64,000 nucleotides of DNA from Klebsiella pneumoniae (GCA_945878555.1 CAMDWI010000007.1:67698-131697); one strand, 5' to 3'; counted from the first letter of the stretch, positions 16,793 through 60,479 are shown. Numbers and translations are program-made. The notes: generated by a model not told the origin, from the letters alone.

Positions 16793-16894
16793 CTATCCGA
16801 TGGTGGTTGTGAAAGACCGGGTGCCGCACGGATGCGGCACCCGAGCCTACACGGACGTATTCACGGCGTGTCTTGAACGACCACCATCGGATAG
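16793..16894. repeat. structured intergenic repeat, copy 1 (A' orientation)
   Basis: Core tgtgaaagaccgggtgccgcacggatgcggcacccgagcctacacggacgtattcacggcgtgtcttgaacg. Flanked by a perfect 15-bp inverted repeat, ctatccgatggtggt / accaccatcggatag. Confidence 0.7.
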
Positions 16895-16963
16895 CTGAGG
16901 GTGTCTCTACGGCAACCTACACCCCACAGCCTGTACCCGCTTGTCTGAAGGTGGTTTTGAAAA

Positions 16964-19246
16964 TCAGTACTCAATCTCCAGCCCCGCATACCAGCTCCGC
17001 GGCATACCCGGCCTTGGCCCGTGAGGCTGACGTGACACCATGTACGCCTCATTAAACAGATTATGCACCCCCGCAAACATCTTCATATGCCCCAGAGGTT
17101 TAAAATACAGTGACAAATCGGCAATGCTGTATGAATCAGTGGTGCCGAACCTGGCATCCGGCACACCCGCACCATTCACCTCTGCCTCCACATTGCTCGC
17201 ACTGGTAAATGTTTCATCGACAAAACTGGCACTGACTGCCCCGCCCCAGTTGGCGAAATCCAGGTTCGTACCGAGACTTAACTGGTATTGCGGTATATAG
17301 GGTACCTTGTTACCTTTCAGACCGAAGCTGAAGATAGATTCCGGGTCAGTTGAGCTGGCATCGTTCTGCTGCTCGGCGTTTGTATAGGTAAATGCGAAAA
17401 AATAACGGTTACTAAACTCCCAGTCACTGGCCAGACCGAGATCGTATGTTCCTGTCAGTTCGATACCGCTGGAGTCCACTTCCCCGAAGTTTTCATCCGC
17501 GCCGCTACCGGCGCCACCGATACTGCTTATCACGATCAGGTCTTCAAAACGGGTATAAAACGCGACCGCCTCGGCCATCAAGGTATTACTGCTATTGGCA
17601 TAGCGCATACCCAGTTCATAACCGGTACTGGTCTCCTCCTCCAACCCTGCCACCGCACCACCCGGGCTAGGCGGAGAGAACCCCATATGCACACCGGCTA
17701 ACGCTTCCAGCTCGGGGCTGAACTCATAAACAATACCAACACCACCGGACATCATGTCCAGATCTGCATTTGCTGTTGTGCCACCAACGCGATTATCACG
17801 GCTCTCAAGGTCGAGCGTCTCATACCGGAAACCGGGCTTGATGATCCAGTCCCCCGTACGCATAGTGTCCTGTACATACACCGCCCACGCACCGGTCTCA
17901 GCCTCACGGTTATCCTGTGTGCCGGGGATGCCGCGTGTGATACCGCTGATAGAACCGTTTACTGACTGGGCGTACACATCGTCCCACTGAAACCGGTCTT
18001 CCACGTCATTGTGATAACGTATACCGACGCCGACTTCATGAGCGAGGCCTTCTGAGTCAATACGCCATTCCAGATCGCTCTGCAAACCCCAGGCATAATA
18101 TTCGCGATTGTTGGCACGGACTCGCAAGCCACAAGCCAGCTCGCCGCGCAGACAGGCCAGACCTGTGCCGGACTGTGCACCTGCCAGTGCGGCCGACATC
18201 TCCAGATTGGCAGCAAGGCCACCGGTGGCTGTTCGCAGGTCATTCAACTTGTACCAGTTACGTGCAAACTCGTTGTAATACGCCGTTGTTATTACATCAA
18301 TTTCTTCAGTCGGTGAAATAAAGTAACGCAGATGAGTACGTGACTGTTCGGTATCGATCGTGTCGTATTGTGACGCGGCATAACGACGATAAGGACTCGC
18401 ACGAAAATCTTCTGTACTCAAACCGAGGTAAGTCTCGTCTGCCTGCTTTTCTGTATAACCGTATTTGAACTCGATCCGCTGGTAAGTATTACTGTGTGGC
18501 TCAAATGCCAGTTTTACCATAGGCTCAATATTATAAAATCCGGTCTCACCATTGATCTCGCGGGCGGCGAGACTGTCGACACGCTTGAATCCGTCAGTAT
18601 CACGTCCATATGTTTCGACCACAAAACCCAGTCTGCCCGCACCGGTATTCAGTGTTTTACCGTAGATACCGTGGATGCGCATATCATTGTCTTCACCGTA
18701 TTGCGCACGCAGAAAAACACGTTGTTGCTCCGGTATCGGGGTGGAGATGTAATTCACGATACCGCCGGTAATATGCGGACCGTACTTGACCTGACTGGAT
18801 CCTTTCAGAAGTTCCAGGCCGTCCATGCGACCTGTTGTGGGTGAATAATAGGCAGCAGGGGCGGCATACGGTGCCGGCGCAGCGAGGATGCCATCTTCCA
18901 TCAAAGTAACCTTGGCACTGCGGGTCGTATCAACCCCGCGCAGGCTCAGGTTCGGAAACAGTCCATAACCGTCCTCCTCGCGGATATATACACCGGGTAC
19001 CTTCTGCAGCACACGATTGATATCGTCATAGGACATATTGCTGATGTCAGCATGATCGACGTAATGGGCCGAGCCGGGGATGTCATATATATCACCCCGA
19101 GAACCAATCACGTAAATCTGGGTGAGAACATCTGCATCGGGCGCGGATGTCTGCTGCTGTGCGCTGGCAGTACTGGATAATCCGGAAACGGCTATAAGCA
19201 GCCCTGATATCAAGCTGCCGGAAACTGCATGTGGCTTCAAATACAT
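16964..19246 (-). CDS. TonB-dependent receptor (probably for siderophore or iron uptake)
   Basis: Signal peptide MYLKPHAVSGSLISGLLIAVSGLSSTASA. Plug region (VLTQIYVIGSRGD...VPGVYIRE) and a beta-barrel ending LEIEY. Start set at the second Met, which has an AAGGG ribosome-binding site. A Fur-box-like site lies upstream. Confidence 0.8.
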   Translation of the reverse strand: MYLKPHAVSGSLISGLLIAVSGLSSTASAQQQTSAPDADVLTQIYVIGSRGDIYDIPGSAHYVDHADISNMSYDDINRVLQKVPGVYIREEDGYGLFPNLSLRGVDTTRSAKVTLMEDGILAAPAPYAAPAAYYSPTTGRMDGLELLKGSSQVKYGPHITGGIVNYISTPIPEQQRVFLRAQYGEDNDMRIHGIYGKTLNTGAGRLGFVVETYGRDTDGFKRVDSLAAREINGETGFYNIEPMVKLAFEPHSNTYQRIEFKYGYTEKQADETYLGLSTEDFRASPYRRYAASQYDTIDTEQSRTHLRYFISPTEEIDVITTAYYNEFARNWYKLNDLRTATGGLAANLEMSAALAGAQSGTGLACLRGELACGLRVRANNREYYAWGLQSDLEWRIDSEGLAHEVGVGIRYHNDVEDRFQWDDVYAQSVNGSISGITRGIPGTQDNREAETGAWAVYVQDTMRTGDWIIKPGFRYETLDLESRDNRVGGTTANADLDMMSGGVGIVYEFSPELEALAGVHMGFSPPSPGGAVAGLEEETSTGYELGMRYANSSNTLMAEAVAFYTRFEDLIVISSIGGAGSGADENFGEVDSSGIELTGTYDLGLASDWEFSNRYFFAFTYTNAEQQNDASSTDPESIFSFGLKGNKVPYIPQYQLSLGTNLDFANWGGAVSASFVDETFTSASNVEAEVNGAGVPDARFGTTDSYSIADLSLYFKPLGHMKMFAGVHNLFNEAYMVSRQPHGPRPGMPRSWYAGLEIEY

Positions 19247-19290
19247 CGTCTGACCCTTATTATTATATTGCATATTCTTAACCTAAACGA

Positions 19291-19309
19291 TAAACATTAT
19301 CATTCAATA
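19291..19309. promoter_or_regulatory. Fur-box-like operator upstream of the TonB-dependent receptor gene
   Basis: ATAAACATTATCATTCAAT. Its reverse complement contains AATGATAATG, which matches the Fur consensus core AATGATAATC. It lies about 45 nt upstream of the receptor start, between bfd and the receptor gene. Confidence 0.4.
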
Positions 19310-58975: not shown

Positions 58976-59175
58976 ATTCCTCCCGGATTCAGGTCTGTAT
59001 TACCATGGCAGAGCATGATCCGCTCTGGCACTGACATTATGCCTGTTTTAACGCGATCACATAAGCACCTGATCAGTGTGCCCCACACTACTGACCCAAC
59101 ATCAGGATCATCAACCGATTTTAGGGTATAGTGGCCACCTGACCCGAACTTCAACCTCTGTAAGGATTATTTTTT

Positions 59176-60345
59176 ATGCAGAAGAATTACCTTTTTACCT
59201 CTGAGTCCGTATCCGAAGGCCACCCGGACAAAATGGCAGACCAGATTTCAGATGCCGTACTGGATGCATTACTTGCGCAGGATCCGATGTCCCGGGTCGC
59301 CTGTGAAACACTGATTACAACCGGTATGGTCGTGCTGGCCGGCGAGATTACCTCAAAGGCTAACATCGATTATGCCGCCGCCGCACGCGAGACAATCCGC
59401 CAGATCGGTTATACCTCGTCCTATATGGGTTATGACGCTGATACCTGCGCCGTACTTGTATCACTGGACAAACAGTCACCGGACATCGCCCAGGGCGTGA
59501 ACGAAGGCCAGGGTCTGGATCTGGACCAGGGTGCCGGTGACCAGGGTCTGATGTTCGGATATGCGTGTAATGAAACTGACGTCCTGATGCCATTTGCCAT
59601 CACCTACGCACACCGTCTGGTCAAAAAGCAGTCCGAGGTGCGCAAGCAGGGTGTATTGCCCTGGTTACGCCCCGACGCCAAGTCGCAGGTGACCGTGGTA
59701 TATGAAGACGGCAAGCCAAAATCAATTGATACCGTCGTCCTGTCTACCCAGCACAATCCGGAGATCGGCCACAAGGAATTGTCCGAGGCCGTGATCGAAC
59801 AGATCATCAAGCCGGTACTGCCTAAAGACATGATTACCTCAAAGACCCGTTATCTGGTCAACCCGACCGGACGCTTCGTTATCGGCGGTCCGATGGGTGA
59901 TTGTGGTCTGACCGGGCGCAAGATTATTGTCGATACCTATGGTGGCTCCGCCCATCACGGTGGCGGCGCCTTCTCCGGCAAGGACCCGTCCAAGGTTGAC
60001 CGTTCTGCCGCCTATGCCGGTCGTTATGTTGCCAAGAACATCGTTGCCGCCGGTCTGGCCGATGTCTGTGAGGTCCAGGTTGCCTACGCGATTGGTGTAG
60101 CCAAACCGGTCAGCACACTGGTCAATACCTATGGGACCAACAAGATAGATGAGGCGAAGATCATCGCGCTGGTCAACGAGCATTTCGATCTGCGACCAAA
60201 AGCGATCATCCAGACGCTGGATCTGCTGCGGCCTATCTACCGCAACAGTGCCGCCTACGGCCACTTCGGTCGTGAAGACGTGCAGTTCCCATGGGAAAAG
60301 ACCGACAAGGCCGCTGCCCTCCGGTCAGCTGCGGGACTGAAATAG
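59176..60345 (+). CDS. metK: S-adenosylmethionine synthetase
   Basis: 389 aa. Contains [25 protein letters not shown] and [19 protein letters not shown]. Confidence 0.9.
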
Positions 60346-60371
60346 GTTTCCAGTCTATCTGTGAAGATCCG

Positions 60372-60479
60372 GCTGCAACCCGGGACGGACGTTTCAGACA
60401 CGCCGTGAATACATCCATGTAGGCTCGGGTGCCGCATCCATGCGGCACACGGTCTTACACGTCCATCCCGGGTTGCAGC
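60372..60479. repeat. structured intergenic repeat, copy 5 (A orientation)
   Basis: 19-bp flanking inverted repeat gctgcaacccgggacggac / gtccatcccgggttgcagc, with one mismatch that would be a G-U pair in RNA. Core tttcagacacgccgtgaatacatccatgtaggctcgggtgccgcatccatgcggcacacggtcttacac. Lies downstream of metK. Confidence 0.7.

Follow-up and report, generated by a model that had tools for sequence, protein, structure and literature searches.

Three literatures, on the YPAL repeats (2006), on the TwoAYGGAY motif (2010, with a 2026 preprint) and on the small RNA Ysr224, apparently describe one widespread element. Here we consider a compact form of it in a 64-kb stretch of DNA deposited as Klebsiella pneumoniae (GCA_945878555.1, CAMDWI010000007.1:67698-131697), referred to below as the window. 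Five structured intergenic repeats, numbered 1 to 5 in window order, occur in this stretch. Each consists of a conserved core closed by inverted arms which are specific to the locus.

YPAL was described by De Gregorio et al. (2006, J Bacteriol 188:7876). According to the secondary literature on that work, its target duplications are variable (3-26 bp) and its targets span or adjoin dyad symmetry. Filled and empty sites are also reported there, and YPAL-positive transcripts are said to be co-transcribed with the upstream gene and possibly stabilized. A 168-nt RU-2/YPAL sequence of Yersinia pestis, which includes gtaaagCGTccgcgccAAGGATggcgcggCTCGAGCCTACATGGATGTATTTACGGCGTctttac, was given by Delihas (2007, PMC2759123). 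TwoAYGGAY (RF01731; Weinberg et al. 2010) is characterized by two hairpins with AYGGAY-type loops on one basal stem. An extended form has been reported in Pseudomonas, with divergent doublets, upstream arrays of 5-mers and large downstream repeats (bioRxiv 10.64898/2026.09.22.753630), and a link of the motif with CsrA has already been proposed in print. Ysr224 (RF02770, Yersinia sRNA 224) is represented by a narrow Rfam model of Yersinia copies, which is not in one Rfam clan with TwoAYGGAY.

Other classes of small repeats share general features with the window element. Repetitive extragenic palindromes (REPs) and REPINs with their REP-associated tyrosine transposase (RAYT), and miniature inverted-repeat transposable elements (MITEs) such as ERIC and Correia/NEMIS, are likewise short non-coding palindromes which lie between genes, at gene 3' ends; they too form inverted doublets, are co-transcribed and may be present in one strain and absent from another. 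However, REPs measure 20-40 nt and bear a GTAG or CGTC tag, whereas the window unit is about 100 nt long with an asymmetric conserved centre. MITEs are defined by conserved terminal inverted repeats and fixed-length duplications, whereas here the centre is conserved and the ends are not, the terminal arms differing between copies. The regulatory RNAs CsrB, CsrC and RsmX/Y/Z resemble the element in having GGA in hairpin loops which match CANGGAYG, with two sites about 25 nt apart. They are, however, single-copy genes with a GacA-dependent promoter and many sites, whereas the window family consists of dispersed two-site modules which are promoterless and lie in either orientation.

The window element is a previously unmodelled compact variant of a known superfamily. 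The sequence gtaaagCGTccgcgccAAGGATggcgcggCTCGAGCCTACATGGATGTATTTACGGCGTctttac of RU-2/YPAL is the window's core; it is held by RU-2 positions ~58-123, of which positions ~64-118 match environmental cores at 83-91%, and an exact 28-nt match exists between RU-2 and relatives of the window. RU-2 matches the contigs L135-L138 and L109 over its full length with 86-99% identity, at the same places as the Ysr224 loci. Ysr224 reaches 105-134 bits in Yersinia-type loci, and the covariance model R1, which was built only from unrelated metagenome copies, gives 60-64 bits in these loci and 67-83 bits for the window copies. In a permissive Rfam search, copy 2 was matched by Ysr224 (34 bits, E value 1.5e-6) on the strand of the consensus given in the original prediction and by TwoAYGGAY (28 bits, E value 0.01) on the opposite strand, which is termed here the GGA (AYGGAY) strand. 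Both of these sub-threshold alignments pair up hairpin loops and junction residues. Because 34 bits fall below the Ysr224 gathering score of 70 and 28 bits below the TwoAYGGAY gathering score of 43, the window copies are filed as a distinct subfamily of the superfamily and not as Rfam members; no match at the gathering level of TwoAYGGAY was found in the window or in the contigs L030, L071 and L134. The original prediction had recognized no named family. This has to be revised, as the core is the centre of YPAL/RU-2 and reads as Ysr224 on one strand and as a TwoAYGGAY-like fold on the other. Sequence comparison thus indicates that YPAL, Ysr224 and the TwoAYGGAY-like fold are one thing read from two strands, of which the window holds a compact version. 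Four points are leads and are not proven: that the three names denote one element, that the GGA strand is the constrained one, that a core has been inverted in place and that an empty site has only one arm, the last three being described below.

Sequence homology to YPAL/RU-2 is confined to the core. Both are dispersed intergenic repeats placed just downstream of genes, both fold into long stem-loops, and both show filled and empty sites between relatives. They differ in that YPAL measures 167-169 bp with long arms conserved between copies, whereas the window units measure 102-112 bp and their outer arms are unique to each locus. Furthermore, YPAL has been described only in Yersinia and Erwinia, whereas the window host is an uncultivated environmental gammaproteobacterium of 52% GC. 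With TwoAYGGAY the element shares the two hairpins on one basal stem, tandem G·A pairs, similar junction residues, a multi-copy state, divergent doublets and a mobile-like variation in copy number; in the window element, however, the second hairpin is short and sequence-invariant. The Pseudomonas-type extra hairpins and upstream GMTBT repeats of extended TwoAYGGAY were not found here: GMTBT(T) 5-6-mers occur 1.45 times per 200 nt upstream of copies, 1.39 times downstream and 1.33 times at random positions, and the window copies have 0-1. The Ysr224 likeness lies in the same core, carried on the complementary, UCC-loop strand.

In our judgement, the most probable reading (roughly 60%) is that the five repeats form a compact (~100 bp) YPAL/Ysr224/TwoAYGGAY subfamily of non-autonomous, mobile, structured intergenic elements of Gammaproteobacteria, possibly acting as a two-site CsrA/Rsm module. 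The element would spread by insertion at gene ends. Its outermost stem would come from the target, which either had a hairpin that was split by the insertion or, in the case of copy 4, had its flank copied in inverted orientation while the element inserted. The inserted element would be transcribed together with the neighbouring gene and form a 3' stem-loop of very high stability, and wherever the GGA strand is transcribed its two GGA hairpins would present a CsrA/Rsm dimer with a putative two-site ligand; the match of P2 to the CsrA consensus, given below, speaks for this reading as well. If the CsrA link is true, a global regulator could be buffered by copies dispersed in their hundreds over each genome. 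Binding of a conserved partner, either CsrA or a mobilizing enzyme, could be the cause of the extreme conservation of the core.

The core of ~72 nt is near-identical in the five copies, and ~92 nt of each unit are conserved. The five copies had been predicted from the sequence alone, and repeat-finder and covariance-model searches return the same five loci with no further copies in the 64 kb. The covariance model matches only these five, with E values of 1e-15 to 5e-20 and of 2e-7 for copy 3, which is split. A 39-nt core pattern with at most three mismatches detects four copies in the window and none in shuffled sequence, and a central hairpin pattern detects three loci against none in shuffled sequence. 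For the repeat finder, the five copies are the window's five longest inverted repeats, with arms of 26-30 nt spaced 52 nt apart in four of the five and 139 nt apart in copy 3. A search of the window for direct repeats gave no second repeat family. Every copy folds far more stably than its own shuffled versions (z from -7.4 to -10.7), and the stems reach -53 to -69 kcal/mol. Taken together, these results support the predicted picture of a MITE- or REP-like dispersed, structured intergenic repeat at gene 3' ends.

Some details of the predicted anatomy need correction. The closing arms, which had been called perfect, are so in general, with the exception of copy 5, in which 14 bp and 5 bp are separated by one mismatch. 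The central hairpin, also described as perfect, is broken in copy 3 by an insertion of 89 nt (45037-45125) and has diverged in copy 4. The arms can be divided into an inner zone of ~10 bp which is conserved and has an internal loop, a middle zone of ~11 bp which is related between copies and an outer zone of 5-13 bp which is unrelated. The claim that the outer arms are related to one another holds for the first two zones and fails for the outermost one.

On the GGA strand, the element folds as a three-way junction of ~72 nt composed of a closing stem (P1), a covarying hairpin (P3) and an invariant hairpin (P2). The order is P1; CGU; P3 with the loop CANGGAUG; CGAGCC-UACANGGAYGUA-UUYAC-GGCGU, which holds P2 and a 5-nt bulge; and P1'. 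P2 itself is GCC-UACANGGAYGUA-UUYAC-GGC and is sequence-invariant, although its base covaries occasionally (GCC/GGC to GCG/CGC). The two loops read CAUGGAUG and ACAUGGAUGU, with the variants CAGGGAUG and CACGGAUG; folds and model alignment agree on both, as in the two-hairpin arrangement of TwoAYGGAY. Read on the opposite strand, ACGCCGTRAATACRTCCNTGTAGGCTCG is followed by a hairpin with a stem of any sequence and the loop ATCCNTG and then by ACG. The closing stem has arbitrary sequence and contains perfect runs of up to 45 bp, P1 being extended outward by locus-specific pairing.

Structural selection on the element had been proposed, and the constraint on folding is supported. In 26 unrelated compact copies, seven of the nine P3 pairs change on both sides, and 97% of P3 cells are paired, compared with 72% in shuffles and 28-42% when the partners are slid. 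In addition, true compensatory evolution exists: the orthologous copies of L119 and L123 show 8 and 3 stem differences, including transversions, all of which are compensated, and synonymous sites nearby are heavily diverged. The same proposal had counted the outermost arms as compensatory. Perfect pairing need not be compensatory, however, and the empty allele of copy 4 has a single arm.

The strand which bears the constraint can be recognized from its mismatches. Among model-aligned pairs, there are 85 G·U pairs on the GGA strand and 33 A·C pairs, which correspond to G·U on the other strand (p 2e-6); unconstrained minimum-free-energy folds give 156 G·U pairs on the GGA strand and 58 on the other. 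On the GGA strand, P1 and P3 repeatedly show tandem G·A/A·G pairs at fixed positions, and the pyrimidine counterparts of these pairs are almost absent from that strand. The GGA strand is also the more stable fold in 71 of 101 copies, and the window copies behave alike. The asymmetry of G·U and tandem G·A pairs therefore identifies the GGA strand as the strand with the conserved single-stranded fold. It fits RNA and single-stranded DNA alike and does not tell them apart. The constrained strand is thus identifiable, yet gene orientation is random and one copy is flipped.

The core is more widespread and more conserved than work on Yersinia or Pseudomonas implies. An exact 28-mer of the core is present in five gammaproteobacterial metagenome-assembled genomes (MAGs) of 51-64% GC, and a slightly degenerate 27-mer occurs in at least 120 contigs from metagenomes, with GC contents of 39-72%, as well as in four viral contigs; in all, 187 covariance-model matches were collected. 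The conserved stretch of 28 nt is invariant over hosts of 39-72% GC, and the half-core ACGCCGTRAATACRTCCNTGTAGGCTCG is essentially so over the same range. In complete Escherichia coli genomes, no match to copy 2 was found. A YPAL-like copy lies on an IncN conjugative plasmid of Klebsiella quasipneumoniae (L151, NZ_CP058862.1, 1546-1610; R1 42 bits, E value 5e-10) downstream of an alcohol dehydrogenase gene, and a related copy is carried by about 15 similar plasmids of E. coli, Klebsiella, Citrobacter and Shigella.

The subfamily of the window is also carried by the CAMBTO01 contigs L003, L006, L011, L013 and L014 (51-55% GC), for which the GTDB label 'MAG: Klebsiella pneumoniae TrH-03may19-115' is very probably wrong. 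On contig L089, at 3831-4823, at least five copies form an array with alternating orientation, 128-194 nt apart and with exact duplicates among them. Around the copies at L041 922, L053 1667 and L092 411 and their neighbours, one flank is shared between contigs at 82-87% and the other is not, which points to a flanking repeat associated with the element, comparable with the large repeats found downstream in the preprint. In a low-GC lineage (L078 2866-2937, L084, L022 and L031; GC ~40-46%), the unit that is repeated reaches ~130 nt beyond the GGA strand on its 5' side and contains a promoter-like TTGTAA-17-CATAAAAT about 55 nt upstream of that strand; the outer stem of the unit has G·U pairs.

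Copies are gained or lost, inverted in place and interrupted by nested insertion, and their presence differs between genomes at ~90% identity. For copies 2 to 4, the relatives are L143, L144, L147 and L148, at ~90% nucleotide identity to the window, and the tree is (window,((L143, L144), L147)). Copy 2 is present at the same site in all four. Copy 3 is common to the window, L144 and L147, and the 89-nt insertion in its P3 loop is found only in the window; the pepP-ubiH spacer of L143 and L148 holds a different copy in the opposite orientation. Copy 4 is absent in L144 and L147, and in L143 it has the same arms and the same private core variants with the core inverted. None of these three copies is found in L145 and L146 (~74% identity). 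Copy 5 is absent from L139-L142 (MetK identity 85-92%), whose metK-ahcY spacers are too diverged for an empty site to be defined, and the distant contigs L030 and L071 carry independent copies in the same metK-ahcY spacer. A pattern search had suggested L002 as an empty site, but the element is present there with one single-nucleotide difference. No filled and empty pairs of true YPALs were found on Yersinia plasmids, where only one flank was shared. The pepP-ubiH copy of L143 and L148 (at 11364-11412 in both) has a deletion exactly between its two CATGGATG loops, which looks like slippage between the 8-nt repeats of the element itself.

The origin of the locus-specific arms can be approached at copy 4. 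The empty allele reads GGGAATCAGCGGTCTGG|CAGGATATACGG and the filled allele GGGAATCAGCCGTCTGG-[TTATAAT...core...ATTATAA]-[CCAGACGGCTGA]-TCTGG-CAGGATGTACGG, with BLAST breakpoints at window positions 49365 and 49464 and a 5-nt overlap. The outer 12-13 nt of the right arm (49452-49464) are an inverted copy of the left flank (49353-49365), and a 5-bp direct repeat, TCTGG, at 49361-49365 and 49464-49468 brackets the inserted material. As the empty allele carries the left arm only, the target was not a pre-existing hairpin, and the second arm appears, from the two alleles, to be an inverted copy of flanking target DNA. With such an origin, the outer arms of a copy would pair perfectly and still be unrelated to those of other copies, and selection on each pair of a helix of 20-45 bp would not be needed. 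Both the splitting of a pre-existing hairpin and inverted duplication may occur as outcomes of insertion. Arms overlapping the ends of real genes would prove an inverted coding duplication; there were two candidates, neither with a Pfam family.

If target-made arms hold generally, they would represent a new insertion route for a small non-coding element. A wider scheme can be formulated on this basis, which we regard as speculative and on balance improbable. Here, YPAL, Ysr224 and TwoAYGGAY would be one superfamily that spreads without conserved terminal repeats by an undescribed insertion mechanism, the outer stem being built as an inverted copy of 5-45 nt of target, the arms permitting the core to flip and the invariant 28-nt half docking a conserved partner, CsrA or a mobilizing enzyme, common to Gammaproteobacteria of 39-72% GC. 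The inverted copy would be made by synthesis with fold-back or template switching, or when a hairpin-capped break is opened off centre.

A number of observations weigh against the reading of the repeats as mobile elements with target-derived arms and a possible CsrA function. A recognizable target-site duplication exists at copy 4 only and at none of copies 1, 2, 3 and 5, and the case for target-derived arms is drawn from that one locus. The direction of change at copy 4 is ambiguous because filled and empty haplotypes cross species lines, as in the tree (window,((L143 filled, L144 empty), L147 empty)). Ancestral empty alleles and alleles emptied by slippage between the two TCTGG copies would have an identical sequence. 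Between co-directional genes, 35 copies have the GGA strand in sense orientation and 40 in antisense; the three such copies of the window are all antisense. For many copies, presentation of GGA loops in the flanking mRNA would therefore not be possible. The gene orientations behind these counts, and behind those of convergent and divergent flanks given below, were called by a longest-ORF heuristic and not by a gene finder. The original prediction noted that four of the five copies have the same orientation relative to the upstream gene, and this count is correct for the window, but it does not extend to the family, as the split of 35 and 40 indicates. No conserved promoter is seen upstream of the GGA strand or in the spacers of doublets, and no U-tract or T-run follows either end of any window copy on either strand. 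Binding of CsrA leaves the invariance of CGAGCC, UUYACGGCGU and the P2 stem unexplained. No csrA gene was seen in the window or in the loci, which span little of any genome.

The first alternative, a possible but doubtful one, places the function entirely at the RNA level. The repeats would be a putative CsrA/Rsm decoy or sponge, or cis-acting sites, which are kept by selection and not by mobility, and the long stem would only serve to present the GGA loops. In the CsrA ligand obtained by systematic evolution of ligands by exponential enrichment (SELEX), ACA and GGA are invariant and GGA lies in a hairpin loop. The P2 sequence CUACANGGAYGUA closely matches the SELEX consensus RUACARGGAUGU, the N of ANGGA being a free position in the family alignments, and both GGA loops, UACANGGAYGUA and GCANGGAUGC, compare well with the same consensus. 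The folding constraint on the GGA strand fits such a function, as do the extra GGA hairpins of some variants, which the 2026 preprint also notes and of which the copy 3 insertion is an example, and the promoter-like site within the repeat unit of the low-GC lineage. Pairs of copies no more than 600 nt apart add to this: 22 of 26 such pairs in the wider family have divergent GGA strands (p 3e-10), the arrangement to be expected if they are transcribed back to back. The spacers of such doublets are mutually unrelated, and 9 of 20 such pairs lie between convergent genes; the window contains no doublet. These divergent doublets repeat, in other taxa, the report of the preprint on Pseudomonas. A function purely in RNA, however, is at odds with the random orientation to co-directional genes and the three antisense cases of the window, and with the lack of a conserved promoter in the window subfamily and the doublet spacers. 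It also fits poorly with presence that varies between close relatives, with a core that flips in place and with junction sequences whose invariance CsrA does not explain.

A second alternative, which we consider rather unlikely, is that of a DNA-level mobile element moving as single-stranded DNA as REP/REPIN-RAYT systems or the ends of IS200/IS605 do. A transposase or recombinase with a single gene elsewhere in the genome would recognize the invariant core with its two CANGGATG hairpins, and any effects on RNA would be incidental. The constraint on one strand is compatible with this, since in hairpins of DNA, too, no mismatches are more stable than G·T and tandem G·A. Single-stranded transposition would account for random orientation independent of transcription, antisense copies, the lack of a promoter and the invariance of the junctions, and the core, invariant over 39-72% GC, looks like a protein recognition site. 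The inverted doublets are REPIN-like, and filled/empty polymorphism, nested insertion and plasmid carriage all fit DNA mobility. However, no associated transposase was seen in the window or in any locus, where no systematic search was made. Moreover, the five copies face both ways within 64 kb and hence show no replication-strand bias of the kind known for single-stranded DNA transposons, and a single cognate enzyme conserved over such a host range is unreported.

The proposal made originally, that of a hairpin like REPs or bacterial interspersed mosaic elements (BIMEs) for termination or mRNA 3'-end protection with an incidental core, is improbable: it draws on gene 3'-end placement, on a preference for convergent flanks (41 convergent and 13 divergent among the model matches, p 2e-4), on the very stable stems, on ordinary gene-end hairpins of this organism which also have no T-run and on the secondary reports of YPAL co-transcription, but the absence of a U-tract on either strand argues against a terminator, a plain hairpin leaves the 28-nt invariance and the strand asymmetry unexplained, and close relatives lack the element at the corresponding sites. 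Repetition stops exactly at the stem, and beyond it, on the upstream and the downstream side, the sequences of different copies are unrelated. A terminator consensus scan found no site at copies 2 to 4 except a trivial 5-bp stem within the left arm of copy 3. Three further candidates were rejected, namely an integron attC site (its pattern is the reverse, as here the centre is conserved and the ends vary, and the neighbours are housekeeping genes with no integrase), a tRNA-derived or other Rfam family (the gathering-level search of the window gives only 6S RNA and a riboswitch) and a small peptide gene (copy 1 has a mutated ATG in the only short frame, and the other strand has stop codons).

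The gene context of the five copies is as originally described. Copy 1 (16790-16897, GGA strand +; 75 bits, E value 5e-18) has arms at 16790-16807 and 16880-16897, with 18 bp of perfect pairing, around a core at 16808-16879. It lies between a TonB-dependent receptor (TBDR) gene (16964-19273, -) and dgkA (16315-16737, -), and its GGA strand is antisense to both. Copy 2 (37572-37675, GGA strand -; 81 bits), with arms at 37572-37587 and 37660-37675 and a core at 37588-37659, separates the convergent genes hemF (+) and dtd (-). Copy 4 (49353-49464, GGA strand +; 67 bits) is similarly placed between the convergent genes glnS (+) and speD (-); its arms at 49353-49372 and 49445-49464 pair perfectly over 20 bp, and its core, in which the central hairpin has diverged, spans 49373-49444.

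Copy 3 (44971-45169, GGA strand -) has arms at 44971-44992 and 45148-45169 and lies between pepP (+) and a ubiH-like gene (+), with its GGA strand antisense to both. Its P3 is split by the insertion in the apical loop (45037-45125, -), which has no counterpart in the orthologues of L144 and L147. On the GGA strand, this insertion folds as three extra hairpins, including GCCCGGUACAGGGAUGUACCGGGC (45074-45097), where a partial covariance-model match is found, and one with an AAGGA loop; a perfect CAGGGAUG hairpin is contained in it. A 120-aa open reading frame at 44776-45138 (-) crosses copy 3 and the insertion and is almost certainly spurious.

Copy 5 (60372-60479, GGA strand -; 83 bits) has its core at 60390-60461. 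The mismatch in its arms is C·A and reads as G·U on the opposite strand. The copy is flanked by the metK stop codon (60345) on one side and, on the other, by the ahcY promoter with its S-adenosylhomocysteine (SAH) riboswitch; its GGA strand is antisense to both genes. A promoter-like TTGTCA-17-TATACT stands at 60563-60591, with copy 5 on one side and the riboswitch on the other; in L139-L142, the second hexamer of this site (ACTATACT) is invariant and the first nearly so. The conservation of this site indicates that ahcY has its own promoter and that copy 5 belongs to the 3' end of metK.

At gathering thresholds, the only Rfam families in the window are 6S RNA (42144-42318, -; 54 bits) and the SAH riboswitch (60636-60709, +; 62 bits), which precedes ahcY. 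The zapA-ssrS and ygfB-pepP-ubiH neighbourhood has an E. coli-like arrangement. Other gene-end hairpins, at 51335-51366, 62153-62188 and 42102-42130, are perfect stems of 12-13 bp; the first two show no clear T-run, and terminators without a U-tract may be common in this organism. The loop of the hairpin at 62153 contains CATCC, which is GGATG on the other strand. The nearest named homologues of the window's MetK belong to MAGs of unclassified Gammaproteobacteria and of Arenicellales.

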